Shown in pieces: positions 7,761 to 55,587 of a stretch of 64,000 nt of DNA. The notes under the pieces were generated by a model that was not told the DNA's origin, ran no database searches, and saw only the letters and a program-made list of their open reading frames with translations. The stretch covers positions 26,966,345 to 27,030,344 of the forward strand of contig NC_134028.1 in the NCBI RefSeq assembly GCF_964204645.1, read 5' to 3'. A program made the position numbers and the translations under genes. Every line of letters starts with the position of its first letter. Position 1 is the first letter of the stretch. Origin of the DNA: Tubulanus polymorphus (Eukaryota; Animalia; Nemertea).

Positions 7761-8546
7761 ATCGACAAATTCAAGTTCTTGAATTACTCGTGTGGTGGCG
7801 CTAGTCAGAACCGGAAATTGGAACCTAAATCCGCCATGTTCTAGTTCATTTGCAATGAAAATCTCTCGCTTCAAGTTTTTGGTTAGCGATATTTTACTTA
7901 CTATACATAGGCACGCATAATCCTTTAAGTAGAATTCGATATAACCTCACTTTGAACGCTAAAGATCACTAGAAATGTGAAAAAACTACCAAAAATCACA
8001 AATTTAGCGATGACGCTCGAAGCAGCTAACGGAAGTAATGACTGGTGCCGGGTGTCATCACTTGGTTGTTGAGTTCAAGACTCTAAGGTGAATTCATTGC
8101 AGGCTACACTGATAAATATGAAATAATATTACGAAATGAAATTGATGTTAGAAGGACTACACTCGTAGATTCATAATAAAAATATGATAAGTACCAGGAC
8201 TCGAACCAACAATCGAAATTGGGTCGTCAAGTGCTGCCACCATGTGATACCTGGCAACCAGTCTTTACATCTTCAGCTGTTGCAAAATGTTTTTTGATAA
8301 TTTTAGGACACTTATAGTTATTTGTAGCATTTGCAGTGAGGTTTTATCATATCCAACGTAGCGGTTGGATAACATACTTAAAGGATTATGCGTAACGATG
8401 TATAGTAAGTAAAATATCGCTCATTGAAAACTTGAAGCGAGAGATTTTAATTGCAAATGAACTAGAGCATGAAGGATTTAGGTTTCAATTTCCGGTTCTG
8501 ACTAGCGCCATCAAACGAGTAATTCAAGAACTTGAATTTGTCGATA
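7761..8546. mobile_element. Foldback/MITE-type non-autonomous DNA transposon with ~170-bp terminal inverted repeats
   Basis: 7761-7931 (atcgacaaattcaagttcttgaattactcg...aatcctttaagta) is the reverse complement of 8376-8546, with weaker inverted similarity continuing inward. This explains the mirror ORFs 7578..7874 and 8432..8758. Confidence 0.85.
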
Positions 8547-8699: not shown

Positions 8700-9140
8700 A
8701 CTTAGTGACACCGTGTCACTGTACACCGAGCGTGCAGGGCCGGCCGGTGACTCTGTGACACCGTGTCACTGTTCACCGAGCGTGCAGGGCCGGCCGGTGA
8801 CTCTGTGACACCGTGTCACTGTTCACCGAGCGTGCAGGGCCGGCCGGTATAGTGACACCGTGTCACTGTACACCGAGCGTGCAGGGCCGGCCGGTATCTT
8901 AGTGACACCGTGTCACTATACACCGAGCGAGCAGGGCCGGCCGGTATCTTAGTGACACCGTGTCACTGTACACCGAGCGTGCAGGGCCGGCCGGTATCTT
9001 AGTGACACCGTGTCACTATACACCGAGCGAGCAGGGCCGGCCGGTATCTTAGTGACACCGTGTCACTGTACACCGAGCGTGCAGGGCCGGCCGGTATCTT
9101 AGTGACACCGTGTCACTATACACCGAGCGTGCAGGGCCGG
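8700..9140. repeat. 50-bp minisatellite, ~9 copies, with internal palindromes
   Basis: Unit cttagtgacaccgtgtcactgtacaccgagcgtgcagggccggccggtat, containing an agtgacac-c-gtgtcact hairpin and ggccggcc. Confidence 0.95.
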
Positions 9141-9623
9141 TGTCTTTCAGTAAAGCCTGATTCATGTAAAACATGGCTTCTTACGATGACAATTACAAAC
9201 GTTACTTACGTTTGAATTCTTACGATCGTTAATGATTTGTGAATCAAATTACATCGACCAAGAAGAGCTCTTGTACGCAATGTATAGATCTGATCGTTGA
9301 GTATTTGATTTCATCCTAACATCCAGAATATCGAGAAATACGCGATAAATTACGATGATGGCTTTGTTTGTGGGTCGCTTCAGTCCAATCAATTCTAAGT
9401 ATAGCGTGGTTTTGTTGAAGTTATTATTGTATTGTCTGACGCTCAGATGACTGTTCGTGATGATACGCGCTGTGTGTAAATATCTGTTTCGGGGTGCATG
9501 GTTTGTTTGTGCCGTATAATCATGTTGTCTATTATTTCCCGTAATTCGCGCTATAAAAATAGGCCAACATTTCAACTAAACAGTAAGCAAATCACACAGT
9601 TAACCAGTTTGAGGGCTACTAGT

Positions 9624-12600
9624 ATGATACAAATGATGGGTGTTTCTTGGCTTCGTTTTCTGATATATTTGACTGTATATGGTCGAATTCGAGGTGAGTT
9701 TGTGAACACTTTTGCCCCGAATACCCGTGTTTTCTGTAAAAAAGTTCCTTTTTCATGAACTAATACATGTATTTGAACATCTATATGTATCGTGATGATA
9801 GGTGAAATCGAATCCTGGGAATCGGAAAGTAAACTACTGAAAAAGTTGTTTCCTGCTGACAGTATGATGCCGTTTATTCGCCCACATGTTAACCCTGATG
9901 AACCGGTTGAAGTGCGACTATCTGCCACACTACAGAACATCGTTGAAGTGGTAAGCATTATTATTCATGTACTTGAGGATATTTTGCGAATAAACAGCGT
10001 GAAAAATCACGAACAGACACGAAGCCTACCAAACACGCTTTTTTCATCTCCTAACTGTAGCTTTGAGTCGGTTGCTTTACTCGATTTTAGTGGAAAGAGC
10101 TGTCAGAGAAAACCTCGTTTGTCGCAACCGACACTAGTAGGAATCGTGGCTGATTCTGGTCGAATGAAGAAACAAAATCTGACACTCAATCGCCACCACG
10201 CGACCACGTTTCGTTATAACCCGGTTATTTTCGTTTTAGCTTCGCATCAGGGGTGGCTTGAAGGGGTGGCTACTAAGAGAGTCCTTGAACCTGAGTGCCT
10301 TCGTGTCAAGAAAAATTTGTCATGATTTCATTTCATTTTTGACCTTTACCACTCGGCATCTGCACCTCCTTAATCCATAAACGTCGGAGCTGCACAGGCA
10401 GGTCCGATATCACGCACATCTTCAACAAAGAAAATCAGTATTTCTTATAAAATTTAAGAAACGAAAGTGATAAGGAATTATACTTTCTTTTCAAGAATGT
10501 TTGGAAGTATCTTTTTGAGCTCAAATATTTCTGGATAAACGTTGATTTCATTTTTTTTGTAATGACAGGATGAAACTGAATCTGTTTTAGGAGCCAATTT
10601 GTGGATGGCTTTAGTAAGTAGAGTATATTACAGAATTTGTTTTTTCCCTATATCACGTATATTCATTATTTGTTCTTTGATTACCGCAGAGATGGAAGGA
10701 TCATCGTTTAACATGGGACCCGGAACTGTTTTCCGGTATTGACAAACTAATGTTACCGGCAACACAGATCTGGTTACCAGATATAAGCCTTTATAACAGG
10801 TAATAGCATGTCTCCTTCACCCTGTAACCCTCACCCTCTCCACCCTCTACTCTCTCCCCTGTCCCCTCCCCGTCCTCCCCTCTCCCCTCTACTCTCTCCC
10901 CTGTCCCCTCCCCGTCCTCCCCTCTCCCCTCTACTCTCTCCCCTGTCCCCTCCCCGTCCCCTCCCCACTCTCCGCCCTCTTCTCTCTCCCCTGTCCCTCC
11001 CCGTCCTCCCCTCTCCCCTCTACTCTCTCCCCTGTCCCCTCCCCCTCCCCACTCCCCGTCCTCCCCTCTACTCTCTCCCCTGTCCCCTCCCCGTCCTCCC
11101 CTCTCCCCTCTACTCTCTCCCCTGTCCCCTCCCCGTCCCCTCCCCACTCTCCGCCCTCTTCTCTCTCCCCTGTCCCTCCCCGTCCTCCCCTCTCCCCTCT
11201 ACTCTCTCCCCTGTCCCCTCCCCCTCCCCACTCCCCGTCCTCCCCTCTACTCTCTCCCCTGTCCCCTCCCCGTCCTCCCCTCTCCCCTCTACTCTCTCCC
11301 CTGTCCCCTCCCCGTCCTCCCCTCTACTCTCTCCCCTGTCCCCTCCCCCTCCCCTCCCCACTCTCCGTCCTCTTCTCTCTCCTCTCTCCGGCCTCTACTC
11401 TTCCCACTCACCCTCTCCCTGTTACAATCTCGGCCTCTCCCTCTTTTACTCGTGGTATACATGCATGCTTGTCTCGATTATTTCAGCGCTTTTGAATTGG
11501 ACTATGTTCCGCATGGTAAAACACACCTCGTTATCTCGTCGACTGGTGACATTAGTTGGATTCCTCCAATACATGTACGAGCTCTCTGCGTGTTCAATGT
11601 GAAATCTTTTCCCTACGACACAAATACTTGCAACCTGAAGTTTGGTAGTTGGACACATTCTGGGCAAATGGTAAATAACAATATTATAGATAACAGTAAA
11701 AAATCTCCTATTGCGTCAATAAGAGATGACGTCACATATTGAGGCCAACGTGACGTCATCGTTAGTTACACTTAATTTTATTGCTTAATACATCAGAAAC
11801 AATTTCATCATGAGTTCCGGGTTATAGTTTTACGGTAAGCCGAGGAGCCCGAGGGGGCAAGGATCTACTGTTCTTCAGCTATAGTGTCAAACTTTAATCT
11901 GATATAGAACTTGGACCCGGGACTAAATAATCTATTCCGTGTTTAGATCAATCTGACTTTAGCAAATGAAGTCGTCGACACATCAACTTTCGCGCGACAT
12001 CCGGTGTTTGATCTCAAAGAGGCTAAGGCTAAACGTAATGCTGTTCGGTACGAATGCTGTCCAGAAGAGTATATTGATATCGTGTTGAGTCTAACTCTAA
12101 GCCGTAGATCGTCGATACTGTCTCTGATCTATGTCGCACCTGCTGTATGTTTGGGTTTACTGGTGCCGTTCATATTCCTCATCCAGAGGAAATCGTATAT
12201 TTTTGGTAAGTTTTAAAATCGCTGAGGGAAAGCAACAGGACGGCGTGGCTAAAGTGGTACCGGGTCCAGCTTGACGGGCTACAAGTCCAGGCTGAAGAAT
12301 GATATCTGAATCTCAGTGAATGCTGTTTTATGTTTACAGGTATCGGTTTGCAGGCATGCCTGCTGATACTACTGTCAATGATTGAAGATGTTTTTCCAGC
12401 TTCAGATGCCCACAGTACACCAATGATAGGTAAGAGCGAGCTGACCTACCATTGAGTAGACGCTTTCTTACTCGGTACCTGAGAAACCACTCGAGTTGGT
12501 CCATTGCAATAAGATAATCTTCATTTGATCATAAACATTATATCATGAACATAAAAATATAGTTGCATAATACTATACGCAGGCCGATCGAAGCCCGAAG

Positions 12601-13648
12601 GCAGGTCATGTAGAACTGACAGCTTATAGAAAAAAGATGCAAAAGATAATTGCACTCTTGATAACAATGAATGAGAATAGAGAATTATAGTATCACGGAT
12701 ATGTAGGTGTAGATCTAAGACGGGGTTCAGAAGAAAGGAAAGACATTTCCCGGATAAAGTAACCACGTCAAAGGCATAGTGGTGTCCCATCCTCGGTGTT
12801 AGATACTATAGATGCAAATTCCGAAAGGATAAGTTTCCTGCAGGTTTAAACTATCGCTGTCTTGACGAAAAGGGTAACCAAAGTGGGAAGGCAGTGGCCC
12901 AGACTCCGGTGACCAAAATCCGCCCTGCTATGGTGAATTTGACAAATGGAACCTCTACTGTTTCCCTGATTCTACACTGCGATGTACTATAGTCATACTC
13001 ACAATTCGTCTCAACTTGTTTATTATTATGTTTCAGCGATTTATTACGCATCTTGTTTTATTGTGGCATCGATTTGTTTGATACTGAAATTCTTGCTCGG
13101 CGTTCTAAGCGACTCACCGATAAGTCCTCCTCCTGGCCTGGCGCGGGTACGTATTATCATTACATTTCACATCAGAGCCAAGACGTCTATGTCCAATCGA
13201 TTACAGCCTTAAGGTTCCTCTGCGTGGTCTCCTCAACGATTCTGTAAAAAAGATTTATTCAGTGTCATATTGAATCAAGAAGAAATCAATATCAAATCAT
13301 ATCATATTGTGTGTATAAGACAAAATAATCTATATGATCTCGCGGTGCACGTAATAAAATGTCCCTTTTCGTTTAATTCATTTGTTTGCATCCAATCTTT
13401 GATATGATCTATTTTGTATTTTACAGTGTTTCGCAACTTTAGGAAAGCCTTTATGCGTTAATCCGGAAATTCAATACGCAGATGAACAGCCGATCATGGA
13501 CGAGGGGTCTTCCCCCAATGACGTGGAGGTCACAAGTCCACCGAAACCAAGCACCACCTGGCGGCCTATCGCTACAATAATGGAACGGATACTGTTTTTG
13601 GTATTCCTCGTGTTGATATTGATTATTACAGTTGGTTACATCCCTTAG
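9624..13648 (+). CDS. Divergent nicotinic acetylcholine receptor-like subunit, alpha type (Cys-loop ligand-gated channel)
   Basis: Exons 9624-9693, 9802-9950, 10569-10613 (45 nt), 10690-10799 (110 nt), 11487-11670, 11947-12205, 12340-12429, 13037-13146, 13427-13648. Signal peptide, WLPDISLYN, Cys-loop CVFNVKSFPYDTNTC, FGSWTH, loop C YECCPEEY and four TM segments. The 45- and 110-nt exons are classic for nAChR genes. Confidence 0.92.
10811..11440. repeat. C/T-rich degenerate tandem repeat in receptor intron 4
   Basis: ~600 bp of ctctactctctcccctgtcccctccccgtcctccc variants, which produce the spurious Pro/Ser/Leu and Gly/Glu/Arg ORFs. Confidence 0.95.
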
Positions 13649-14340
13649 AATGTTATAGGGAGATATATATATGTATATGTCGTATGCCTGGTGTATTCAG
13701 TATAGGCAATGTAACGGAAATTCAAACCGGAATGACAAATCCCTCGCAATGTAGAATAACATAAGAGTGACATGATTACGAATATAATCATATAATTACA
13801 AAATAACACGACATAAAAATCTCGGGAAAAAAGTATTTTTACAGCATATTCGTTACCACTAACCTAGTTAGGTTCGATGACATTCATGACATCGCCTACT
13901 TATTCAATGTTATTCTATAATCATATGTAATTTGTTATTCTATATGAAACACTATCATCATCATCAAATATATATATATATATATTACAAATGTATTACA
14001 TTTAAAAACTTAGCGTTTTTTTCTCAGAAAATTCCGTTCGATGGATCTTTGTAAATTAGATTTTGCATTCAATGCCATCGTATGGTATAATCTAACAAGC
14101 ACTTGGAAACAGACTGTTGAAGATGGTGAATTTGCCTGCTGCGAATTTTAGACTCTTGCACCATTTCCACTTATCGATATCTAGTTTCCATATCTAAAAA
14201 TCACTGTAAAGTATTAAGTGCTATGTAATTATGATATTTGGAACGTGGCCTAAATTATTGTGAATGGATACTGAAGATTGCGATGCGGTGCGTGTAGCAC
14301 CTCTTGAAAAACCTGCTCATTCGTGATTAAATCTTGAACG

Positions 14341-17300
14341 ATGGCGGCGAGGATGGTGTTTTACACGATGCTTATTATTCTAATGCTGGCGATATCAAAA
14401 GTTGCTGGTCAAAGTAAGTTATCAAACGCAGTTCTGGGTTCGGTTCCGCAGTTCTGAGTTAGACTTAAGAGTTAAGACAGATGGAAAATGAACTGATTGA
14501 TTCAGAATTATAACTTGGGAGTTTAACTCTAACTCACAACTCGTGAAATCAGATCCTGCAGTTGTTCAGTTCCTAACGATACGATTGTGAAGTTTTATCA
14601 CTGGAAATGGACTAACTTGATCACAAATCTTGTTGTCAAATTGGGTCGGTTTCAAAACCCAGTAGCTCGAGCCTCTGATCTAGTGAGACCAATGTGTTTA
14701 CTCTGCAGTATTTGAATTCTGGGACAGTTGTAGCAATGTTGGATCGTCATTACATGAATCGCAATTGAAACTTGTTCACATATATTACAATATTCCGATG
14801 ATGCAGTCTGCGTCGTGGCAAACGGAGTCAACTACATTTACTGCATCATAGAAATAATGGCTTTGATTTTGTCATAATTGTTTTTGTGGTACAGGTGAGA
14901 CTGGCTGGCAGACAGAACAGAAACTTGTTTCGAGAATATTTTCCAACGACGCTAAGAATGCGCTACTCTTTCGACCATACACGAAATATAACGTCCCAGT
15001 AGAAGTAAAAATTAATATGATGCTGCAGAACATTGTCGACGTGGTAAGTGATTGAAATTCCTGGGAAATATGTTTGGGTCCAATCTTGCTAATACGGTAC
15101 CTAACTACCAGCATAAATAACTTAAGACTTGGGACATCTATTCATAAACCATAAAAAGTTTCCGTCCAATGAGGGATACGTGTCTCATAACGAAACAACA
15201 TTGTAACCATCGATAAAACACTCCGAGTCCGTGTTGTGATAAAATCCGAATGAAAAAAAGAATACGAAATGTTTCCTTGAGCTGGTGTAGTTAGTTCAAC
15301 GTCTTGACTATATCCGAATAGGAATAGACCAATTCACGAACACATTACCGGACTCAACATTATGATCTTTAAAATGTGAGATTTTATATTAACAAGTTGC
15401 ACTTTATTGATTGTTTAGGATGAAGCGAAGTCAGCTATTACAGTCCACGCTTGGTTACAAATGGTAAGTAATTAATCAAAGATCGATGATGTTTTGTGAC
15501 ATAAATCGAGTTGATATATCGCGTTACTGTGTGTTTATAGTCGTGGAACGATTCTCGATTGATGTGGAATAAAGATGAATATTCGGATATGCAAGAAATT
15601 GCGATCCCGGCTTCAATGATTTGGACTCCAGACATCACGCATTACAACAGGTCTGTGATTTGTTAACTTTACAATTGAGAAAAAGAAGAATATCAAAATA
15701 TTTAAGATAATTTATTCGAGAACTCTGATAATCCGCGACGAGCACAGTTTTATTTTGCTCGGATATGATTACAGCCTACAGCCCGTTCCGACGAGTTTGG
15801 TCGGTGAATCTCAACTAACCGTGTTTTCTGATGGAGGTGTTAAATGGACTCCTTCTCTACACATGCAGTCGTCGTGTTTATTTCACATCTCATCATTTCC
15901 GTTCGATCAAACGAAATGCTCGTTTCAAGTTGGTAGTTGGGTTCATCACGGTCTCGCGGTAAGATACACTCGACTCCATACAATCATATATTCAACATTG
16001 TAAATACACTCCAAATTCAACACAGTTCAGAATATTTCAGAAACGACTATAAGACTTACATTTTAAATCCATCATTATCATCAATAAACTTATTCTCGTG
16101 TTGAATAAACCTCACCTTTTCAGCTAAGATATTTGTGTCATCGAAAATCTGGCCATTTTATAAACAAGTGTTCGCTGCACTACCTGGTATTTCAATGACC
16201 GATTCCTCTCTTCATTAAATGTTTCAGATAAATCTGACGACCACTTCACACGAAGTTGATACTTCCGACTTTAAAAGTCAACGGGAGTTCCAGATAACGA
16301 GCACGGCTGCCAATCGTAGACAATACGGCTTCGAGTTATCTACCGAAACTTATATCGACATCGATTTTAGCATCGTATTAAAGCGACGATCGTCGATACT
16401 TGGTCTGATTTATGTGGCCCCCGCTGTATGTCTGGGGTTTCTTATTCCTTTCATATTCCTCGCGAACAGGAAATCACAAACTTTCGGTAGGGAAATCACT
16501 AGAAACCTCTACACTATAAAATATACATGTAAATCACGTGAAAACATAAAATAATGGTGAAATGCCTTAGATGCCTTAGATTGTGTTAAATGACCACACT
16601 AACATTCAGTTTTCTTTTGCTTGGTGTAAACATTCTGACAGAATGATTACTCCAAGTTCATTGTAAGTACATATAAGTACACCAGACTTCAACAGATTTG
16701 TTCATAAAGTAACGATTTAAAATTCTAATTGCGCAATGATATGAATTAATGAATAAAGTAAACTTTGCTTGAGTCGGATCCGATCGATCATATCGAATAA
16801 CCGTTCAACTCGAATAACCGTTCAACTCGGATGCTTTTTAAAACATTTTTGAGATACTTTAGACGTTTATTAGCCAATCAGATATCTCTCAAGTCGGACA
16901 CATTTTACGGTCCGAGAAGATCCGACCTGAGCGGAAGCTTTTGTATATTCAAAGGAATATTCATTGAATAAGTCGTTAATTCACATTGTGTTTATTATTA
17001 TAAACTGATTTCAGGTGTTGGTTTACAAATCTGTATTTTGTTACTTCTATCAACATTGGTCGGTGTATTCCCGCCTTCAAACATCACTGAATCACCAGCA
17101 ATAGGTATCAAATACGAGCTTCTGAAAACGTAGTCATTTCAAGAAACCCATTATCTTGTGGCAACTGATATATTTTCAGAATAGTAAATTGAATCTATTG
17201 GACAGTTGCTACTACAATCAGTTCTCAATTAATTGAGATTTCCTGTTTTATCTTGAACTCTGTATAAATGTTCTCAATGTTTCAGTTGTTTACTACGCAT

Positions 17301-17690
17301 CGTGTTTTATCGTGGGGTCAGTTTGTTTGATATTGAAGTTTCTGTTGAGTATTCTATGCGACTCGGCGCTGCCTCTTCCACCGCCTTCTCTTATCGAGGT
17401 AAAATCATCGTTTTACAAAACTGCTGCGTTTATTTTCGATAACGATTTTGAAAATTCTTTTTTTCGCGCAGTGTTTCGGGAAATTGGGAAAATGCCTTTG
17501 CGTTAATCCGGAAGTCCAACGTAATGACGAACAGCCAATCATCGACAACCCAGGCGATGATGTCACGCCATCACGGACTGCTGGCGCCACCTGGTTCCCG
17601 CTAGTTGAAGTAATGGAGCGTATTTGTTTTATTCTGACCCTGACGCTGATGATAGTGTTGATGGTTGCTTACATTCCTGTTCCGAAATGA
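14341..17690 (+). CDS. Divergent nicotinic acetylcholine receptor-like subunit, non-alpha type; tandem paralogue of the upstream gene
   Basis: Exons ~14341-14413, 14895-15043, 15419-15463, 15541-15650, 15774-15958, 16228-16486, 17015-17104, 17286-17398, 17472-17690. Same intron positions as the paralogue. WTPDITHYN, Cys-loop CLFHISSFPFDQTKC, VGSWVH, and loop C RQYGFELSTETY without vicinal cysteines. Confidence 0.92.
14435..14557. mobile_element. Short MITE-like element of the ggatccagttccacagttg-terminus family
   Basis: ggttccgcagttctgagttagacttaa ... tttaactctaactcacaactcgtgaaatc form an imperfect inverted pair. Related to 63700-63841. Confidence 0.5.
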
Positions 17691-18254
17691 AACGAATTAA
17701 ATACACGATCATTAACTACATCTAAGCACAGCTGAATACTTGAGTAAACTAAATATTAACTCATTTCATTGTAAGCAAGGTTTTATTAATCGTATCAATA
17801 AATTCAGTTCAACCGGTCTGAGTTTATCTAAACTTCTGTAAAGTGGACCTGGATCCATCCAGAAAGTCAGTCCCGTTTAAGATAGCACTAACTGTGGAAT
17901 TGTACTACAAACAATAATCGTAAAATTGTGTTTATCTTTTCTCAGATGAATATATTACTATCCATAATCAAGTACAAATAAATGGTTTATTGTATATTCT
18001 ATTCTAAGTGTTTCCCATCAGTGTGTTTCCAAGGTTCCTGTAACTCTCTGAAGTTCGCACTGTTCCTTTCCTCCACCGCAGTTGTAGCATCTACAGTGAT
18101 TTATGATTGTACCAATTGCACTAAAGTAATTGTAAATTAAGGCATTCTTTCCGTGTTCTCTCCGATCGTCAATCTTTTCAACCATTACCCGCAGCCAGTT
18201 TCTGCTGCACTTACTATCATTTGCCCTAAATATTGAGCATCTGAAACCGGTCAA

Positions 18255-18790
18255 CATCACCACAACTGACTGGTCATCATCAACACAACTGACTGGTCAA
18301 CATCACCACAACTGACTGGTCAACATCACCACAACTGACTGGTCAACATCACCACAACTGACTGGTCATCATCAACACAACTGACTGGTCAACATCACCA
18401 CAACTGACCGTTCAATATCACCACAACTGACTGGTCAATATCACCACAACTGACTGGTCAATATCACCACAACTGACTGGTCAACATCACCACAACTGAC
18501 TGGTCAGCATCACCACAACTGACTGGTCATCATCAACACAACTGACTGGTCAACATCACCACAACTGACCGTTCAATATCAACACAACTGACTGGTCAAT
18601 ATCACCACAACTGACTGGTAAACATCACCACAACTGACTGGTCAACATCACCACTGGTCAACATCACCACAACTGACTGGTCAACATCACCACAACTGAC
18701 TGGTCAATATCACCACAACTGACTGGTCAACATCACAACTGACTGGTCAATATCACCACAACTGACTGCTCAACATCACCACAACACTGA
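18255..18790. repeat. 23-bp minisatellite, ~23 copies
   Basis: Unit caccacaactgactggtcaacat with minor variants. Confidence 0.95.
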
Positions 18791-19397
18791 CTAGTCATCA
18801 TTACCACAACTGAGGTTGTGGTCACCACAGCTAAACGGTCACCACACTGACCAAATAATCACACAAACTTCATCAGCCACAACAGTTCAGTGGTGCTCCT
18901 AGGTTTTTGTCATCTAGAACTTCTAGAATAAATAGAAATGCCCTTCGAGTCGCGAGGCTGCGCACGGGTATCGAAGTATCGAAATCTCGTGCTTTCATAT
19001 AAAACCATTAACCTACATGTAACTACCCCACACAAATAGTAATCTATTCCCGTATAAGACACTAAGAATTTCTCATACAATATTTACGAAAATCTACGTG
19101 CGACCTTGAATAAAATTCACCGGGTTGAACTTTCAATCACAGGCCATTAAGAATAGATAGATTTTTTACCTCGACTCTACACATAGTATTGTGCGTTTTA
19201 GGGAATTTTTATACACATTTCTTGTGCTTTCGAGCTATTTTTATAACCACGTTATCTATATCTGCCTATTTAGACTGGTTATTTATGACCTCACAATCCC
19301 AGGCCACTGTTTGCCCGGTTTAGAACGCGCACTTATTTTCTCTTTGCTACCATATTTTTTACTCATACACATCTGTTGGTAGTTCACGGTGATTGAA

Positions 19398-22300
19398 ATG
19401 GCGGATACTACGGGAAAGGTACGTTTTACATTCAACGAAAATCTTCTTTTTTTTTAAATTAGTCACGGCACAGTTACAGCTGTCCGCTGTCTTGTATTCG
19501 TGCATTTAGGGGGTTCGCATTTGGAACAGAAAATTGTTCACACCCTCTTGAAACGTTTCGCCGCTTCTTTTAGACGAGGATTTGTACAAAAGAGTAATAT
19601 ATAAAAGAGTGCTTGACGAAAACTAAGGCGCTCCCCCCTCCGAATGTGTCCCTGATAATACAATAATTTCTGATAAAACTGAACCGGTTATTTATATTAC
19701 AGCTGAATCGTTATCATGAAGAAATTAGTCACAAATTCCCAGGTTATTGGATATAAAAAAACTACTTGTAAAATGCAGTAAAACGCATCTAAAACTATTT
19801 TTCAAAATTTTCCCTGTATTAGTGACGAGGCATAATCCCACATGCTGTCGAGCGCCTGTGGTGCGAGGGGTATTCTTGAGGGGGTTTCCCAAACAATTTG
19901 AAAAAGACTCTGCTGTCTTCAGATTGGTCCAGTGTATCGCTTTATGTATCGATAGACAACCGGAGGAGATTTCAGGGAATTCATCGTTTGAAATTCGTCT
20001 CAGAATCGAGTGAAATATTGATATGTGCCATAAAGTTCATGTTTTACAAATTATAAAGTCTTATTCTTGTCTGTAAAACATTTGTTGATTTCACAAACAC
20101 ACGAAAGATGATTTGAATTCTAACGTAACGGTCTTGTCCCCTATGCGTCCATGCATTTTATGAAATCTACATGAATACAGGCTTTGTTATAGTCAGATAA
20201 CCTAGAATTAAAAGTGATATCATTCAATAGTTAGTTTTATCTATGAATCAGAATCGTTTCTATGCGATAAATACTAAATGTAGAAAAAGTAATCTGGTTT
20301 TTTTTTCGCTGCAGACTATTGAATGTAAGGCAGCCGTTCTGTGGGACTATAATCAACCATACAGTATCGAAACAGTACAGGTTGCTCCACCTAAAGCCGG
20401 TGAAGCGCGGGTCAAGGTAATTAAACATACCATTAACCTAATTAACGTTAGTTGCAGCTGATTTATATTTTTAAGATGTCCTATATGCGGATGAATAATT
20501 TCGCCAAGATACGTAACTACTGGTGATGTTTGCTTAAACACGCGTCGTGCTATTCACAATTTAAACACTCGATAGCTCTCCAACATTTTTGGAAAGCTGA
20601 TTTTAGATACAGTCATAACATGTTCAAGGCGCTATACGTGGTTCTTGTTTTGGTTTGGTTTGATTTTAAAGTTGAATGTGAATCACCACTTGCTACGAGA
20701 ACTAGTGCAAGAACAATCAGATTCTTTTCTAATTTCGCGTAAAAAGCTACTAATTTACCTTTTAGATTAAACGGAGCTTAGTCAGTTACTATAGTAATTG
20801 TATTTCCTAGCTAAAGATCGACCTGGTAGCCATAATGGCCTCGCACACGCCTAGGAAAACTGTAGGACTAGTAATTATTGAAAGAACCCGAACTTATAGT
20901 TCTTAGTTTCAAGTTAGGTTTTCTTTGCTTTTTTTTCATGCCTTTTTCTAGCTTATCGCGAGTGGTGTTTGCCATTCTGATGCTAGTGTACAGAACGGCA
21001 CTTGGTCGTCTATCGGTCCAGCTCCGATAATTCTCGGACACGAAGGCGCGGGTGTCGTTGAAAGTGTCGGGGAAGGCGTCACGTCTCTTGTCCCAGGTAA
21101 AAAACTATATGTTGAATTTTGTTAAATAAATTCAAGCGATGAACTAATATATAATTACAATCTTTCTAACCCAGAGAAGTTAATATTTTTCAAAAAACAA
21201 ATGATCAGTGTCTTGATTTTCAGGTGACCACGTGTTAACCTCATTCCTCGCTGAATGTAACCAATGCCCAGTTTGTGAAAATCCAAACGCGAATTTTGTC
21301 TGTCAAAAAATACAGTGAGTAAAATCTATCTATATATAATAGTAAATCTCTGAGCCACCACACAGATTAGCGGTCGATGTCTCCGCTATTCGTTTCAAGG
21401 GGTTCGAAAATTAATTTGTAAATCTTGAAATAACAACTACTTGATTATTTGGAAACGGGTCGCAAGCATAGTTTGCAAGAAATGAATTTTAAGCGCACAT
21501 GACTAGGGCTACACGAGGCGATTGTAAGACTGACGCAGCTAACTGTGTATGTGTTACAGCGCAGTTTGTAAACATTATATCAGTACTGCCAAGGTTACCA
21601 GAAGAACTAGAGTAAGGCTGGAAATGGGTTGTAACTTAAGAGATTATGTTTGAAGTTGTCTTTCAGACCAATTCCGATCAATTCGTTTACGGAAATAGAT
21701 CAGTCATAAACGAATGAACGAATAGTAGAGAATTAAATAGAGGCAACTTTGATGCTGGTATCAATCTGCGTAACTTGCACCCATGAGGTTCAAATGGTAC
21801 ATGCTTGATAATGTTGATACATTGCAGGACAACGTTTAACCAAGCTGTCCTCGTAGACGGAACAACAAGAATCAAATGTAAAGGCAAAGACATCCGTTCG
21901 TTCACTGGAACTAGTACATTCAGTGAATATGCCGTCGTTCCCGAAATCAAACTCGCAAAGGTCTTTACAATAAATTACCTGTCAGCGAAATAAATGAAAT
22001 ATATATCGATAAGAATAAGGAAAAGAATTCAGTACTTCCGAAGATAACTATTAGAATATAGTCGAAACCTCGAATGAATATATTTATTAGCTCGGGCACG
22101 GAAGTACATCCCTGGCTCGAGGGCGCATTTTGGACTCTTTAAGACAACATGTCATTGAGAAGGCTCTTCATTGTAAAAATTTCAGATAAACCCCGAGGCT
22201 CCACTGGATAAAGTGGTTTTGTTAAGTTGTGGAGTCGGTACTGGTTACGGCGCTGCCCGTAAAACCGCCAACGTTCAAGCAGGTTCTACATGTGCTGTGT

Positions 22301-23816
22301 GGGGTTTAGGAGCTATCGGTATGGCCTGTGTACTAGGCTGTAAACACGCCGGAGCTGCCAAGATTTACGCCGTTGACATCAATCCGGATAAGGAAAAGAA
22401 AGGTATAAACACAAACGTGACGCCTTTAGAGGCATACAGAGTAACCTGCAACCGCACGGGAACGATTTGGTACAGATCAGGCCCGAGTCAAATTTGACCC
22501 GTTCCTTATTGGAGAACGCGTTCATGCGTAAACCACTAGACAAAATGAAATAAGTAACTTCCGGAACCAGTTGCAATTCGCACGCAATAATTTGACCCGT
22601 TCAAGAAATTTGGCTCAGGCCAGATTTAACCCGGGTCAAACATACATGGGCCAAATTGGCACCCAAATCTGGCTCTGACCAAAACGCTTGTGAGATCGGG
22701 GCTATAGTTCTCAGTACTGGAGACTTGCTGCTGCCACAACAACAAAAGGAAATCGAGGGAATTATAAACTTCAAGGGTCCTTCAATGTATGTAAATCACT
22801 TATTGAGTTTGTAGCGATGCCATGTCGAAAAAGCACGATGCTGCCAATGCCTTTATATTTACAATTATTGTTGTGTTTCGTTTTAGACTAATATTTTACT
22901 ATAAACAGCAGTATATAATTGTATTTCTCAGCGCGCGCAGTCGGTGCTACTGACTTCATCAATCCTAAAGATCACGAGAAACCGATACAAGAGGTTCTGC
23001 AGGGATTAACAAACGGCGGATGTCACTATACATTCGAGTGCGCAGGCGCCGTTGTCACTGCCGTAAGATACGTGGAATTAATATGTTCAATTTATCGCAA
23101 AAAAGAAATTAATATAATCTTAAGTTGTTGATCGAATTTTATTTTCAGCAAGCAGCTTTAGAAGCGAGTCATCCTAGTTGGGGTAAATCTGTTTTGGTCG
23201 GTATGGCTCCTCAGGATAAGACTCTATCGGTCAGTCCGTTTACCTTACTGAGCGGCCGAACCTGGATGGGAAGTTTTTATGGAAGTAAGCCAACAAAATA
23301 TTCAAATACCGTTCGGCAATTCATTTGAATGTTGAATTATTTTCATAATCAAGACTTCTATTAGTTTAGCATAAGTTCGGAATTGTTATAACTGAAATAT
23401 CAAAATGAGAATCTGATATCTGTCTATCGCAGGCTACAAACCTAGAACTGATATTCCTAAACTGGTGGATGAATACATGAAAGGCGATTTTCCACTGGAC
23501 GAGTTCATCACACATAGAATGCCTCTAGATAAAATCAACGAAGCTTTCGATTTTCTCATGACCGGTAAAAGGTACTGAACTATTCAATCCGACGTATGTG
23601 AAAATAAATAGTTATTTGATAGAAGTTCTAGACGCACCGCGATGTACTAACCTTAACCGTTCTGTACGATAGTAAACAATGTTTTTAACATTTACCCTTT
23701 GTTCTATTTCTTGGAGGTTGAATTACCGTCTTATATGAAACCCTGGAGATGTATCTATTGTTATTCTGTTGTTTTGTTTCAGTATTCGAACTGTGCTCGA
23801 GATCGGAAAACTGTGA
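19398..23816 (+). CDS. Zinc-dependent medium-chain alcohol dehydrogenase, class-III-derived, copy A
   Basis: Ten exons: ~19398-19418, 20315-20416, 20952-21096, 21224-21314, 21828-21960, 22186-22402, 22931-23062, 23148-23284, 23432-23571, 23783-23816. [27 protein letters not shown], structural Zn cysteines CNQCPVC...[22 protein letters not shown]; ends [11 protein letters not shown]. Confidence 0.93.
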
Positions 23817-24173
23817 AAGTGTTGAATATCGATCACAACCATTGCAAAGTGTTTGTTTGTCAATTTCGACTGATACAACACAAATCACGAAACGTTTCAT
23901 CTGGTTTTACACACTGCATACTGATGGATTCGAAAGATCCGTTTGATATTGGGAAAATAAAGTACATCAATGATTTAATACACGCGATTAATAGCATTTT
24001 TGTATCTGAATAGTTTGATTTTATTTCCTCTTGAGAAATCTTCTTGAAAAATACAGAAACCAGGAATGTATTGAAAGCAAGTAGTTCTCATTCCCAGGGT
24101 AAAATTGATAGCAAAAATGCCCGACTTAATTTTTTCCAAAATACCTGTTGAATTGATGTATGATTTCCCTGGC

Positions 24174-24181
24174 TATAAATA
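24174..24181 (+). promoter_or_regulatory. Candidate TATA box of ADH copy B
   Basis: ctataaataag lies ~75 bp upstream of the ATG at 24251. Confidence 0.4.
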
Positions 24182-24250
24182 AGATACTGGTAAGTTCAAC
24201 AACGCGCATTTTCCACCTAGACATCTTCGGATACTTCCTACATCACCGGC

Positions 24251-26660
<2,410 letters not shown>

Positions 26661-28235
26661 AACCTACCGGTCCCAGACGGCGTCGAATTCATCTCTGTCC
26701 ATAACAGATGATCTACACAAGAGCTTTTTTCTCTACTTCATTTTGTTAGAATGGTTATTGTAGAACAGAATAGTTATCAAACTTGAGTTCAGTTGATTTC
26801 ACTGATGTCAGGTATAGACTGTATTGCATATAGTTCTTAGATATCTAAACCAATAAAGTTTAAAAGTAGATTAAGTTCAGTAAAGTTTTTGACACTTAGA
26901 TTTATACAGGACATCGTGGATTCCAATCAGTCTCGCGTCAGTGACTGCCAGGTGGTCCCGCTTTTTGCGTCTCTCCTCAGTCTCTGAATAAATGAATGCT
27001 TGAGATGCAGCAGGTTGGTGCAGTGACGGTGAATTGAACTGTAGCTCGATACCGTTAAATAAGTTAAAAGATTGTTTGGTGATTTTATCGATTATCACAT
27101 CCTGCAATGGACCTGTCAATTTCAACATTGTAAAACTCATTGGAATGACTGGGATATTCGGTTCCGCTGCAAATAAAGTTCGCCCATGTGTTTGAAATTT
27201 ACCATTAGCTGTTTCATGGAGGAGGATGTTGTAAGTGGTTTATTTTATTACTTCAAATCGTGAATTACATTCAGTGACAATAGGGGACATGAATAATTTA
27301 TAATTCACGCGTGAAATTCATGAAAATTGTTATTTTAAACCTGATAAAATCATGCATCAACCAAACAATGACAGTCGAGTGTGTATGAACCTAACTCGCC
27401 AGATGACAATAAACCATGATTCGATCTAATCAAATGACATCCGATTCCTGTCGTCCCGTTCGATCAGTTGTTCGCTGGCAAATTCATGATTCTCCGACAA
27501 TTTATCAAGAGATTCACGAAATCACGCTGATTTCTTGTCAAACACAAAATTACGCGTGAAATTCGTCGAATTAACGGTTCACAAAAAGTCTATTGTCCCC
27601 GTGGTCCCGGTTACTTAGTGATGAACTATGAGTTTTCAATGTTTTGTCTCTTGAGTCAAATTTAAGTGAGAATTGTCGAACTGGATCCTGTATTTTGTTA
27701 AGTTGCAGCAGATCTGACAGGTGAATGTCCTAATTTAATACAAACGACGTCGTGGTAACTATACCGATGTTTGTCTGTTTTCGTTCCAGTATTCGAATTT
27801 AGGATGAGAAAACTGAAAACTAGAATTGTTTATCTTCGATATTTTACTTCCCGTCCTGGAGTCATTTGACACACAGGAAACCAATATATCTGATACAAAT
27901 ATAATAAACTATATTCAATAATTGGATAATAAATGTTTTATTTATGATATTGTTTTATCTCGTATGATGGTACCCGCTTCCAGGGCACCCCCACCCCTAT
28001 TTGTCCTAACAAGTAATTCGATTTATTCATGATTGAGGATATTGAACGCGAACCAGCAGATAGATTGAAAGACGATGTGACCGATATATTTTTTATTCCG
28101 AGCACTAATGATTATTTTTAGTTTGATTTATGGTTTACCGGCAAACTATTAATAAGCTTGATAAGTCTCGCAACAAACATTTCTAGCCCTGACATCGACG
28201 ATTGTTGTGCATGCTTTAATACACCAAACACCAGG

Positions 28236-31745
<3,510 letters not shown>

Positions 31746-32279: not shown

Positions 32280-32623
32280 CTAATTAAAACTAGTCTCAAG
32301 ATGTTCATTAGATTTTATCACTGGATTGGTGTGGCATCTGATGCACCTGCCTTGGCTGCAGGCCTGTGTTATATGATGATCATGTATTGATTGGCCTTGT
32401 GCTTTTGTACAATAACAACCGCTTAAAAATTCTCCTTCAGTCATCGACAAATCTATATCTTCACCGTACATAACTTCAACGAAAACGTTCCTCGACACGT
32501 ACAAGCGACCTCTATCGGAATTCCAGCGCGTAAAGGGATTATTACGGATGTCAATTTTGACGAGAGCAGCCGAACATAAACGATCGTTTTCGCTTCCAGC
32601 TTTAGTCAGAACGAGCGTCACCC
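32280..32623 (-). pseudogene. 3' fragment duplicate of the PHYHIP-like gene
   Basis: 32369-32623 is near-identical to 41436-41692 (VTLVLTKAGSENDRLC...VFVEVMYGEDIDL...HDHHI). Homology stops abruptly at 32623 and there is no N-terminal part. Confidence 0.8.
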
Positions 32624-32974
32624 TAGCTACGTGCGATTGGATACTCTACTGAGGGAAGCGAGGATTCAGCGATAATCCACCAGGATCGCTAGTGGCACTG
32701 GGTAACCGTACTTCAACTTCTAAAATCAAAATAACTTGAGGCCTTCAAGAATACGATTTCATTAGTCAAGAATATCTAACTAAACACATATGGCACGTGA
32801 TCATCGCCGTTCATATTTATTCAATTTCGTCATATTTTTGTTTACAGTAAATCATTGATGGAAAACGTTTGTTTAATAACTTTGTCAAATTGTGCGTTGA
32901 ATTATTAACGAAAACTTTAAAGATGTTTCTCAAATTGTGACGATATCGTTTCTGTATACGGATTGTTATAGACA

Positions 32975-38231: not shown

Positions 38232-40582
38232 ATGACTACGATGAAACTGATAATAGATGTCGACACCGGTGTCGATGACGCTCACGCATTAATGATGGCT
38301 TTAGCACATCCTAACGCGCAGGTGCTGGCGATCACGTGCGTCAATGGTAATACAACGTTAGATAATGTGTGCACGAACACGATCAAATTGCTGCAAGTTT
38401 GCGGTCGAAATGACGTGAGTTTGAATCGATGAGTTTTGTACGGTAGGCCTGACTACGGGTGCATTTCGATCAAGGGCGAAATGCAGGATTTTTGTAAGGG
38501 TCCACATAAAAGGGTACAATTTATCCGTAGCACGCGAGTGCTCGGCCGCTGGACAACGACCGATTTGCGAGCTCTACTTAGGAGTTTCGGTTCCATTGGG
38601 GGTCGGGCATGTGAAATAGTGCCTGAAAATTCATAAGCTTTCATTGGTTCAGTTTACCGGATGACAATAGGGAAGGCAGGGTAAAATAATTGTAACTCCT
38701 CCATATCTTATAGTAATGAACTGCCCCTTGTAACTGAGTTAGTATAATTACTGATATTTTGTTCTGCCATTAGGTACCTGTCTATCGCGGCGCCGAGTCC
38801 TCACTACTCGGTACGCAATGTCTGTCGACTTATCACGGTCAGGGCGGTCTCGGTGACGTCCTACTACAGGCTGATGATTGGTCGGAATATTTAAAGAAAC
38901 AGCATGCTGTCCACGCATTGATTGAATTAGTGAATAAATATCCAGGCAAGATTAGTAATTGAAACCAACGAGAAAAGATCAAACGAGTTTTAATTGACGT
39001 TTGTTTTTCTTTTTGTCCCTTTTTAGGAGAGATAACTTTAGTGACACTGGCGCCACTGACAAACATCGCACTTGCTTTGAAACTGGATCCACAATTTGGA
39101 AAGAAATTGAAACAAGTGGTGATGATGGGAGGTAACATTCACGGTACGCATCGAACATCGAAGCTTTTTATTCTGTTTGAACGTTAGGTCAGCCTTGCGG
39201 CTGGCAGGGAGGACTTGTCAACCTACATACACACCCTTGAATGAATGAATGAATTTATTTTCTTAAATACATGAACATGAGTATAAAAACTTTGATTACT
39301 AAAAATTAATTGAACATTTACATATTTGTGACTACTAGCGATGTGTAGACAAAGATGGCGTCGCAGTCGACCTACACCTGCAGTCATATTTCATATATTT
39401 CGTTGCTAGGTGTGGGGAACATCACCGTATCGGGAGAATTCAACTTTTTCGTGGATCCCGAGGCGGCATTTGTTGTACTGAATGAAATCGGTAGTCTCAT
39501 TAAACTCGTCTCATGGGAAACTTGTAACGAAAACATCACTGATTGGGTAAGAAAGAGACTGCAGTATCTTTCAATATAAGACTATCTTGAAAAGATGTAG
39601 AATTTTACCTTGTGTCGTTTAATAAGATAAAATCCCACTATTTACAGATTAAAAGAATTTAAAAACAAGAATTTATTTATTAAATCTAAAATATTTAAAT
39701 ATAAATATTTTAGATTTAATAAATAAATAAATATTTTAGATTTAATAAATAAATTCTTGTTTTTAAATTCTTTTAATCTGTAAATAGTGGGATTTTATCT
39801 TATTATCCGTTCACCACGTTTGAGTGTGTTTATCGTTCTCTTGTGTCGTTTGTTCAACGATGAGATTAATTCTACTTTATTTGATAATGATTAATGTCGC
39901 GGGTGCAAGTTCATGTACAGCGCAGTCGAGACTGGACTTCAATTATTAGACCGGCTTTGTCCGATGCTTTCAGTAAGCAACTGGATCCAGTTGCCAAATA
40001 GTTGGTTGAAGTAAACCTTTGGACAAATGACATAGTGACAATTGAAAATACATTGTTATAATGTTATCTGATGGTTAACTTTTACCAACCTTTGAGCAAC
40101 AGAGTTTCGTTTCGCGAGAAACGTTTAAAGTAGTTTTACCCATTGCTAAGATTAAGTTACCGATAGGTTTTACAAAAAATTGGGATTTTCGTCGAAAAAT
40201 ATTTCATGAAAATTGACAGTGAACCCCTGTATTTTAGGCTTGGGCTGATCAATGGATGAACACCAACACTGATGTAGGAAGATTTAATAAAGCCATATCT
40301 ACAAAAGGATTCAGACATTTGAAGAATATAAACAGCGCCGGATTCCGTTCCTGCGACTCGATGGCGATGGCCACAGTTCTGGAACCTACATCGGTAAGGT
40401 CGAGTGAACGTCATTTCTGTACGGTGGAACTGAAAGGCGATCACACTCGCGGACAAATGATCGTAGATCGTCATAAACTGATCGCTGGTGGCGAGAACAA
40501 TGAGAAAAATGTGGAAATAGTTACGAAAATCGACACCGAAATCGTACAGAAGCTGTTAACAGCGGCCGTTAATATGAAATAA
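38232..40582 (+). CDS. Inosine-uridine-preferring nucleoside hydrolase family protein (xCD-type, group III)
   Basis: Exons ~38232-38414, 38775-38945, 39028-39143, 39410-39546, 40239-40582. Ca-binding DVDTGVDD, VNGN, VPVYRGA, HGQGGLGD, LAPLTNIALA, MMGG, EFNFFVDPEAA, RSCDSMAMA, VELKGDHTRGQMIVD. Confidence 0.93.
39621..39804. repeat. Perfect AT-rich palindrome (~75-bp arms) in nucleoside hydrolase intron 4
   Basis: aataagataaaatcccactatttacag...aaaatattta is exactly reverse-complemented at ~39728-39804. Confidence 0.92.
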
Positions 40583-41371: not shown

Positions 41372-42385
41372 CTAAATGCGAACACTACGATCACTTGTAT
41401 AGTCGTAGATATTGCAAATTTTACAGTCACGTGACTTTATATGATGATCGTGTGTTGATTGGCCTTGTGCTTTTGTACAACGACAACCCCTAAAAAATAC
41501 TCCTTCAGTCATCGACAAATTTATATCTTCACCGTACATAACTTCAACGAAAACGTTCCTCGACACGTACAAGCGACCTCTAGCGAAATCCCAGCGCGTA
41601 AAGGGATTATTGCGGATGTCAATTTTGACGAGAGCAACCGAACATAAACGATCGTTTTCGCTTCCAGCTTTAGTCAGAACGAGCGTCACCCAGTGACGAT
41701 TCATGCAATAGAAATCAGCAAAATATAAATTGCACTTATTTACATCATAAAGTCTCGCGGCTGGAATGTATAATCTCGTGTTACCGAACGGAGACGTTGG
41801 TGGAGGTCGCCCAGTTCTTGGTTGGATACACGTATTGAAGAAAAGCCCTTGAATTCTCTTGTTAATGGGAGATGCAGCGTCGCCATTGTTATCTTTCAAA
41901 TACTTTCTCATGATATCATCCGAATTTATAATCCTCTCAAAATATTCCCGTGGTTTATTACGATACAAAAATTTACATGGCGCAAAACCGTAGTTTTTCA
42001 TGGACGCAATATACTCAATGGCTTTGCATAAAAGAGATTTTAGTTCCATCGTATTATAAACTGCGCTAAAACCCACAATATTGCTTGTGAAAGATGTCTT
42101 TGAAACGCGGTTGTTTAAACTATGATCGACGTGAAATAGAGCCTTGTAAAAACAACCAGCAGTTATCTCCAAACGGATACGGTTAGCACTTATAGTACTG
42201 CTAGGTGTAATCATGTATCTGGAACTTTTTGAATGAGTTATGTTTTTTACTTCCAAAATCAATCGGCTTTCACTATCAGTTAATAATGGAACATTCAAAC
42301 TTAATTCCACTTGACGAGAACTCCATTGATTAATCACTAATTCTCCTGGTTTCGGTGCACAGCTATTTGAAGTGTCCATTTTCAT
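41372..42385 (-). CDS. PHYHIP/PHYHIPL-like protein (phytanoyl-CoA hydroxylase-interacting family), intronless CDS, ~337 aa
   Basis: ORF 41372..42547, likely start MKMDT at 42385. Motifs LYRNKPREYF, YLKDNNGDAASPIN, IQGLFF, PPPTSPFG, NLYFADFYCM, HWVTLVLT and VEVMYGEDINL are characteristic of the PHYHIP C-terminal domain. Confidence 0.85.
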   Translation of the reverse strand: MKMDTSNSCAPKPGELVINQWSSRQVELSLNVPLLTDSESRLILEVKNITHSKSSRYMITPSSTISANRIRLEITAGCFYKALFHVDHSLNNRVSKTSFTSNIVGFSAVYNTMELKSLLCKAIEYIASMKNYGFAPCKFLYRNKPREYFERIINSDDIMRKYLKDNNGDAASPINKRIQGLFFNTCIQPRTGRPPPTSPFGNTRLYIPAARLYDVNKCNLYFADFYCMNRHWVTLVLTKAGSENDRLCSVALVKIDIRNNPFTRWDFARGRLYVSRNVFVEVMYGEDINLSMTEGVFFRGCRCTKAQGQSTHDHHIKSRDCKICNIYDYTSDRSVRI

Positions 42386-42654
42386 TGATTTGCAGTAAAC
42401 ATCCAACCACGTTATTACAAGGTACTGGGGAATCCCTATACATGTCTCTTTTTTACTCGTTTTGAAAAACAGGATTTCAAATAGTTCAGTGTATATACAT
42501 GTATAACTAACTGGTTGTGCAAACGTATGACTTTCATACGCCTGCAATGTGAACCTCGATTTATTGTCAAGGAGATGGAGGGGAATCCCGTATTGCCTGT
42601 CAGGAATCCCTGTGATACTTTGAATTATGTTTTATTTCACTACATGCGGCCATA

Positions 42655-53514: not shown

Positions 53515-55587
<2,073 letters not shown>

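Follow-up and report, generated by a model that had tools for sequence, protein, structure and literature searches.

A nicotinic-receptor gene pair of Tubulanus polymorphus with an intact agonist site and a shortened, basic M1-M2 loop: a possible chloride-preferring channel

What does a nicotinic-type receptor conduct if its agonist site is intact and the inner ring of its pore has turned from acidic to basic? This question is raised by two head-to-tail nicotinic-receptor genes located at 9624-17690 (+), with 692 bases between the stop of the first and the start of the second, in a 64,000-nucleotide stretch of DNA from the nemertean Tubulanus polymorphus (RefSeq assembly GCF_964204645.1, contig NC_134028.1, positions 26,966,345 to 27,030,344), which we call the window. 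The two genes are real, transcribed and selected tandem paralogues, one alpha and one non-alpha; the gene models, the splicing seen in sequencing run X4 and a nonsynonymous divergence (dN) below the synonymous one (dS) bear out the original prediction in this respect. As to function, we propose that the pair could form a gated, chloride-preferring channel in which gene 1 provides the agonist site and gene 2 acts as partner subunit, a reading to which we give slightly less than an even chance.

The case begins with the loop joining the membrane helices M1 and M2. For comparison, 153 proteins were collected, the rows being the best 150 of 10,620 HMMER hits and not the whole family. After exclusion of 40 fused or partial rows and of the RefSeq protein P0001, in whose place our gene 1 model was used, 112 single-unit rows of 330-640 residues were left, to which both genes were added. 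Loop length was determined as the gap-free count from the M1 proline to the proline at position 23' of M2, which was possible for the 104 rows having both anchors. The count is 45 residues in 96 of these rows and 46 in four; P0013 has 43, and the lowest value, 42, is shared by the pair and the unrelated P0061. A comparison with human alpha7 gives the same shortfall of three residues. In gene 1 the shortened loop and the start of M2 lie at 12175..12205 (+), with Arg -2' at 12187, Lys -1' at 12190, Ser 0' at 12193 and Ile 2' at 12199; positions 5'-23' follow at 12340..12398 (+) and include Gly 6', Gln 8', Ala 9' (12354), Ile 13', Ser 16', Asp 20' and Pro 23'. The corresponding segments of gene 2 are 16456..16486 (+), with Arg -2' at 16468, Lys -1' at 16471, Ser 0' at 16474 and Thr 2' at 16480, and 17015..17073 (+), with Gly 6', Gln 8', Ile 9' (17029), Leu 13', Ser 16', Gly 20' and Pro 23'. 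Both genes have Gly at 4', and the register is secure because this residue, Pro 23' and a shared phase-1 intron anchor it.

The pair thus shares Arg-Lys-Ser in place of the GEK-type motif, whose glutamate occupies -1' in 62 of 71 ordinary rows. A basic -1' residue was found in three of the 104 rows, namely the pair and P0137, and additionally in P0097, which lacks an anchor; 0' is non-basic in three of the 104 rows (gene 1, gene 2 and P0061). Among 105 rows, the net charge from -6' to 0' is +2 in the pair only and +3 in one row (P0137), compared with -1 in 54 of 72 ordinary rows and 0 in five rows that carry a Pro-Ala-Lys (PAK) motif; this segment is free of acids in eight rows besides the pair. 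Alanine at 9' occurs once in 105 rows, in gene 1. Judged from these rows, 6' Gly, which is present in 15 of 19 related subunits and in the solved receptor Alpo4, is an inherited group trait, whereas the deletion, Arg-Lys-Ser and the 9' Ala of gene 1 are particular to the pair; 8' Gln is common to the pair and the Lineus relative P0011. The original prediction had the loop, about three residues short and lacking proline and glutamate, and all the named prime positions right. Its view of a newly rebuilt pore stands for the deletion, for Arg-Lys-Ser and for 9' Ala, but 6' Gly has to be taken out of it. Three further loop variants were noted. P0137, which belongs to the divergent arthropod-like branch, combines Lys -2', Lys -1' and Arg 0' with an ordinary loop length, and P0097 has Lys at -1' and 0'. 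The short-loop relative P0013, whose M1-M2 loop is two residues shorter, has Asn -1' and Pro 2' and, of all rows, comes closest to the pair when the tree is built on the outer domain, with weak support (83/47). P0087, P0111 and P0114 form another group of nicotinic acetylcholine receptors (nAChRs) with GVVK for GEK and a loop one residue longer.

Both genes comprise nine exons and eight introns, all of the GT-AG type, with identical phases and nearly matching exon sizes, and both reading frames are intact. Gene 1 (9624..13648, +), an alpha-type subunit of 412 residues, has the exons 9624-9693, 9802-9950, 10569-10613, 10690-10799, 11487-11670, 11947-12205, 12340-12429, 13037-13146 and 13427-13648; gene 2 (14341..17690, +), a non-alpha subunit of 413 residues, has the exons 14341-14413, 14895-15043, 15419-15463, 15541-15650, 15775-15958, 16228-16486, 17015-17104, 17286-17398 and 17472-17690. 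Exon 6 of gene 1 is a 100% match to P0001 (XP_074648644.1), a Tubulanus polymorphus RefSeq protein named alpha-7-like, whose C-terminal 412 residues are the gene 1 model. The RefSeq protein is 42 residues longer, as it uses an upstream in-frame ATG at 9498 within the 5' part of the gene 1 transcript (9469..9623, +; contig start at 9469). We regard 9624 as the matching start, because an in-frame TGA precedes the ATG of gene 2 by two codons.

Intron 6 interrupts the codon of 4' Gly in phase 1 in both genes (12206..12339 and 16487..17014, both +). Run X4 was taken as RNA because its contigs skip GT-AG introns. A single contig of 1707 nucleotides lacks all eight introns of gene 1 and extends from 9469 to 13953 at letter 1699; the sum 155 + 1239 + 305 = 1699 is exact, so that there are no extra letters. 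For gene 2, introns 3-8 (six of eight) are spliced in X4, introns 1-2 not being seen spliced there, and a contig of 707 bases over exons 6-9 adds up exactly as 97 + 331 + 113 + 89 + 77. In the spliced contigs of both genes intron 6 is removed with nothing inserted, exon 6 being joined directly to exon 7, and there is no micro-exon that restores GEK; the exon 6/7 junctions are therefore as originally drawn.

The two proteins share 45% of their residues and group with each other in all trees, which identifies the genes as products of a tandem duplication. Repeats surround and interrupt them. Upstream of gene 1, an inverted repeat (7761-8545) with 171-base arms that are 92% complementary encloses a further pair of arms of 73 bases and may represent a fold-back mobile element. 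Tandem arrays occupy 8701-9140 (unit of 50 bases), 10829-11389 (42 bases, C/T-only, in intron 4 of gene 1) and 18249-18813 (23 bases), and high-copy interspersed repeats, with a summed contig depth far above that of the flanks, lie at about 15266-15477 and 16750-16961 (introns 2 and 6 of gene 2).

The agonist site of gene 1 is complete. All five aromatic residues and the vicinal cysteines are present, namely the loop D Trp of the complementary face (10602..10604, +), the loop A Tyr (10792..10794, +), the loop B Trp (11650..11652, +) and loop C with YECCPEEY (12049..12072, +); the YxCC signature makes this an alpha subunit, and the full aromatic set is found on both the principal and the complementary face. 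Gene 2 has the loop D Trp (15452..15454, +), the loop A Tyr, the loop B Trp and the second loop C Tyr, while the first loop C Tyr is replaced by Phe. Its loop C reads FELSTETY (16330..16353, +) and lacks the vicinal cysteines, which makes it non-alpha. Both descriptions agree with what had been predicted for the two sites. The β7 Lys and β10 Asp accompany the loop C Tyr functionally; these two residues and the first loop C Tyr of gene 1 correspond to Gln, Asp and Phe in gene 2.

In order to judge whether binding can open the pore, we considered coupling residues, a structure model and selection. Coupling of binding to gating involves the β1-β2 Glu, the Pro and Asp of the Cys-loop, the pre-M1 Arg, the M1 Pro and Pro 23'. 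Both genes retain all of these, so that a dead pore is less likely. Folded as a single chain, gene 1 gives an ordinary four-helix nAChR subunit (predicted local distance difference test score of 88; root mean square deviation of about 2 Å to solved nAChRs), in which, by P0001 numbering, M1 ends at F305 and M2 spans 311-332. A complex prediction with four copies of the gene 1 membrane part (not a pentamer, and without gene 2) scored 0.22 against a mark of 0.32 and gives no verdict. Between the copies dN is smaller than dS wherever both are computable, with 0.51 vs 1.75 overall and 0.44 vs 1.48 for loop plus M2. Identity amounts to 88% in M1 and 74% in M3, compared with 37% in the outer domain. 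The intracellular M3-M4 segment is short, with 92 residues from Pro 23' to the pre-M4 Trp of gene 1 versus a median of about 170 in 54 ordinary rows; according to PMC2213565, receptors without the long M3-M4 loop remain functional.

With respect to the family, the C-X13-C loop with FPxD and the ligand-binding domain PF02931 place both genes in the nicotinic branch of the Cys-loop receptors. Word-based protein searches gave almost nothing but P0001, and the relatives were taken from the full HMMER scan. The main tree was computed from 48 rows with the loop and M2 columns removed, and a quick tree of 62 rows agrees with it. In the 48-row tree the pair belongs to a clade of 34 rows (100/99) made up of five PAK rows, 23 short-loop rows and six look-alikes of divergent arthropod subunits, a label given by resemblance, with Priapulus as the one of the six identified by name. 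Nested in this clade are a branch of 29 rows (88/79) and a branch of four rows uniting the pair with P0011 (Lineus) and P0012 (98/86); the 23-row short-loop set has a support of 91 in the quick tree. The rows nearest to the pair, P0011, P0012 and P0013, are about 30% identical to it. Where a short-loop row is named, its source is Tubulanus, Lineus, Capitella, Owenia, Lingula or Aplysia. On this evidence the pair belongs to a lophotrochozoan group that is little known and has short intracellular loops. This larger group, which includes Alpo4 and is the source of part of the odd pore, had been overlooked in the original prediction. The gene of P0011 likewise has nine exons, and its 4' codon is interrupted by a phase-1 intron as well, its exon 6 being 268 nucleotides long versus 259; unlike the genes in the window, it is single-copy in 24.5 kb (L001 1412-24545), flanked by a PAN3-like gene on one side and an ionotropic glutamate receptor gene on the other. 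Identification of the short-loop group with DopC was tried and dropped, as the Aplysia row P0083 could not be linked to the DopC locus.

The 34-row clade joins the pair and the PAK group even with the pore columns removed, and since it holds the PAK group, an earlier change of filter has taken place in this section of the family; within the clade, basic inner rings may have several origins. Placing the pair in one clade with the five PAK rows was rejected by the approximately unbiased (AU) test (p 1e-58), in which the group was defined after a first tree and the PAK rows were assigned by motif and taxon, not by accession. This agrees with an earlier suspicion that the basic inner ring lies outside the known anion-selective type.

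From these data, the following mechanism can be proposed. An agonist, probably acetylcholine or a choline-like compound, would bind to the intact aromatic cage of gene 1. The signal would very probably reach the pore via the retained coupling residues, and the channel would conduct. If it does so, the basic inner ring is somewhat more apt to repel cations and favour anions than to leave selectivity as it was. The ring is basic in either register, because Lys replaces Glu at -1' or, if Lys takes the role of 0', Arg comes to stand at -1'. The acid is thus replaced by a base and not just neutralised, which favours a chloride preference. As a speculation, gene 1, with Ala at 9', would have a weaker gate than usual, and Ile at 2' and 13' are candidates for its replacement. 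Three background findings are relevant: according to passages of PMC8011927, the ring of -1' glutamates dominates selectivity and forms the main chloride barrier in simulations of alpha7, and E-1'A renders 5-HT3A slightly anionic; a single Arg in M2 is reported to confer chloride conductance on the muscle receptor (PMC6800317, in part). Of the three options anion-selective, leaky and non-conducting, an anion preference appears likeliest, and such a channel is likely to be inhibitory and to have arisen separately from the known molluscan ones.

For the subunit composition, a heteromer of alpha subunit and partner is plausible. The pair fits such an arrangement because both genes are spliced in one sample, share the rebuilt pore and resemble each other closely in M1 and M3, and gene 2 has lost residues of its principal face but not the loop D Trp. 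That gene 2 lost the chemistry of this face after the duplication and now co-assembles with gene 1 seems to us a little better than an even proposition. A more specific scenario, which we consider unlikely, combines these ideas: an inhibitory acetylcholine-gated chloride channel, independent of the AChRB channels described below, would have arisen via M1-M2 shortening and a basic ring without proline, the reverse of the classical route by proline insertion, and it would be an obligate alpha plus non-alpha heteromer, which would explain why Alpo4 is an orphan when expressed alone.

A number of observations weigh against a chloride-preferring heteromer. Concerning selectivity, alpha7 with E-1'A alone stays cationic, and its conversion took E-1'A, V13'T and a proline insertion (passages of PMC8011927 and PMC6800317); in the pair, residues are deleted instead, proline is absent and 13' is hydrophobic, and gene 1 retains an acidic 20' (Asp). 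Geometry is the weak point of a chloride preference, for in the structure model, a monomer of gene 1, M2 starts at Ser 0' and Arg-Lys lie in the preceding loop, where they may or may not face the pore. The Tubulanus paralogues P0010, P0018 and P0021 keep an acidic -1' residue and could dilute the ring in mixed pentamers. PF02932, which describes the membrane part, has no match at an E-value of 0.1. No measured current was identified for members of the short-loop group, and Alpo4 was silent in all screens (PMC10338036). As regards the heteromer, gene 1 has both binding faces and could act alone as a homomer, Alpo4, a non-alpha relative, assembles as a homopentamer, and tandem nAChR pairs are common in lophotrochozoans, comprising 55-65% of the genes in two bivalves (PMC6896357, in part). 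The high identity of M1 and M3 could stem from old gene conversion; the proportion of synonymous differences (pS) is 0.58 in M1-M3 vs 0.78 in the outer domain. The transcript evidence comes from one run and one sample, and contigs drop rare isoforms. Finally, in a tree of the outer domain alone the pair lies outside the alpha7 and PAK branches and the short-loop group falls in an unresolved fork, which means that the unity of this group rests on membrane and inner-loop columns.

Several of these points would suit a channel that is still cationic or non-selective, with low conductance and little calcium flux, either because Arg and Lys point off the pore axis or because these subunits are a minority among paralogues with an acidic -1'. 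We regard this as fairly unlikely, yet as the most serious rival. The position of Arg-Lys in the loop rather than the helix, the cationic alpha7 E-1'A mutant and the absent -2' proline all fit it, as do at least four further Tubulanus members of the short-loop group among the comparison rows (P0010, P0018, P0021 and P0068); moreover, the -1' substitution abolishes calcium permeability but not that for monovalent cations (PMC2064938, in part). On the other hand, each copy is free of acids between -6' and 0' and has a net charge of +2 there, and the two paralogues have retained Arg-Lys-Ser despite a divergence of 55% of their residues. The vestibule Asp four residues past the loop A Tyr is lost in the pair too; this residue does not set the sign, because the five PAK rows keep it.

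The pair might instead form a peripheral chemosensor for compounds of prey, predators or venom and not a synaptic acetylcholine receptor, which we hold to be improbable. The group is expanded and fast-evolving in nemerteans, the named rows including five Tubulanus proteins plus gene 2 and three Lineus proteins; the outer domains of the copies have diverged fastest, and the short inner loop would leave little room for synaptic anchoring. The site of Alpo4 binds a sterol-like detergent (PMC10338036, in part). Gene 1 keeps all five aromatics and the vicinal cysteines, however, and the eight introns of each gene are at odds with the cephalopod chemotactile receptors, which passages of PMC13174522 describe as intronless and as having a remodelled pocket, whereas the cage of gene 1 is intact. 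The likeness to these receptors that had been suggested for the pair is weakened accordingly. Self-resistance to the nemertean agonist anabaseine finds no support for Tubulanus in passages of PMC6410017, which list tetrodotoxin, not anabaseine, for this genus.

About as improbable is a pentamer that does not conduct and serves as a ligand-binding scaffold, decoy or signalling receptor. It would account for the missing PF02932 score, for the loss of the near-universal basic residue at 0' and of 9' Leu in gene 1, and for the lack of current from Alpo4 (PMC10338036); a loop that is three residues shorter could also limit the movement of M2. Set against this are the coupling residues, every one of which was found in both genes and which also diminish the non-conducting option of the original prediction, the membrane helices, which are more conserved than the outer domain, the low dN relative to dS of loop and M2, and the small residues at 6', 9' and 16', which suggest a wide lumen and not a plug. 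That the loop is an artefact of annotation or assembly, or that the genes are decaying duplicates, is very improbable: no relative with more than 38% identity over most of the length was present among the best 150 of 10,620 HMMER hits, and neither these nor the matches of the word-based protein searches included a record of the gene 2 protein, but the joints are borne out by spliced contigs, the gene 1 loop is spanned gap-free by contigs of the DNA runs X1 and X2, the deletion is common to both copies and five of seven scored coding differences in the contigs of the sequencing runs are silent.

Elsewhere in the window, 22177-29001 (+) contains tandem zinc alcohol dehydrogenase genes with near-identical exons (22177-22497 and 25402-25866). 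An open frame of 419 codons with a PHYHIP_C domain (PF19281) lies at 41372-42631 (-), and a shorter second copy is found 9 kb away at 32280-32645 (-). The open frame of 1831 codons at 47295-52790 (+) is acidic and of low complexity with a coiled-coil-like end, its Pfam hits being weak and below the cut-off. Exons of a nucleoside hydrolase, a trypsin-type protease and a CAF1C/WD40 protein were located at 40238-40582, 54912-55289 and 57294-59896 (all +), respectively.

The rules of ion selectivity have come from mutants and from natural PAR or PAK pores; in the pair, nature offers another solution at this site, one that is expressed and under selection. It bears on the questions whether the charge of side chains suffices to set selectivity and whether a channel with 9' Ala can stay shut. 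It also supplies an alpha subunit with an intact site, together with its likely partner, from a group of which Alpo4, a receptor with no known agonist, is the only solved member. Should the pair form no more than a weak cation channel, it would add one divergent subunit set to the many in lophotrochozoans.

How does the pair compare with known systems? Vertebrate alpha7 is the top single-sequence PDB match of gene 1 and has the full aromatic cage on both faces as well, but differs in GEK, 6' Thr, 9' Leu and a long inner loop. The RefSeq name alpha-7-like was therefore not adopted, the alpha7-like rows forming a separate branch (99/95; 97/90 on the outer domain alone). DEG-3 and DES-2 of C. elegans, which are reportedly encoded by neighbouring genes and co-assemble, score 120 and 109 bits (phmmer ranks alone), well below alpha7 and Alpo4, and the PDB names both alpha-type. 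The cephalopod chemotactile receptors offer a precedent for repurposed nicotinic subunits and carry mixed filter motifs (PMC13174522, in part); none of their chains was among the best 60 of 340 and the best 60 of 341 PDB hits, which excludes nothing. No literature on nemertean Cys-loop receptors was found in a search that lay outside most subscription journals, the nicotinic papers on nemerteans or Tubulanus being concerned with toxins; similar loops may exist in the supplements of the octopus preprint (an alignment of 1197 channels) and in the motif figures of MolluscaGenes.

The divergent subunits of insects have short inner loops, and the divergent pair of Apis lies in tandem; it consists of an alpha and a beta subunit, as the present one consists of an alpha and a non-alpha. 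For Tribolium alpha9, Leptinotarsa alpha9, Apis alpha9/beta2 and Drosophila beta3, passages of PMC2064938 and PMC12309072 note the absence of GEK, low identity and an undetermined selectivity. The best ESM Atlas feature matches are short arthropod clusters. The look-alike rows in our tree form their own branch (97/84) inside the 34-row clade and, unlike the pair, have ordinary loop length. Loss of GEK as such is hence already known from these subunits; by comparison of motifs, what is new here is the deletion together with the basic ring.

Closer in structure is Alpo4 of Alvinella pompejana (PDB 8BX5), an orphan nAChR-like receptor solved as a homopentamer with a sterol-like detergent bound in its site; it was silent in extensive screens, for which the authors' possible reasons include a missing partner subunit or chaperone (passages of PMC10338036). 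Alpo4 is the best solved match of a profile of the 22-row group (443 vs 407 bits for the next), and its close relative P0074 (487 vs 239 bits) sits in the 29-row short-loop branch of the pair. It resembles the pair in 6' Gly, a GIGL-type start of M2 and a short inner loop, and gene 2 in the loss of the vicinal cysteines; it differs in -1' Glu, 0' Arg, 9' Leu, ordinary loop length and a 16' Met plug (PMC10338036, in part). By single-sequence score gene 1 is no closer to Alpo4 (167 bits) than to human alpha7 (176 bits). Orthology in the narrow sense was rejected, as the pair has neither -1' Glu nor the 16' Met constriction and does not group with P0074 or P0098.

Closest to the proposed function are the AChRB receptors, acetylcholine-gated chloride channels of molluscs, annelids and flatworms with a PAK motif (bioRxiv 10.1101/2025.04.02.646353, in part). 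Their filter consists of Pro-Ala-Lys at ordinary loop length with a net charge of 0, whereas the pair has Arg-Lys-Ser, a deletion of three residues, no proline and a net charge of +2. Like the pair, however, they are derived from nicotinic receptors and have lost -1' Glu, and five PAK rows of the mollusc type stand within the same 34-row clade. By analogy, AChRB is a candidate for how the pair works.

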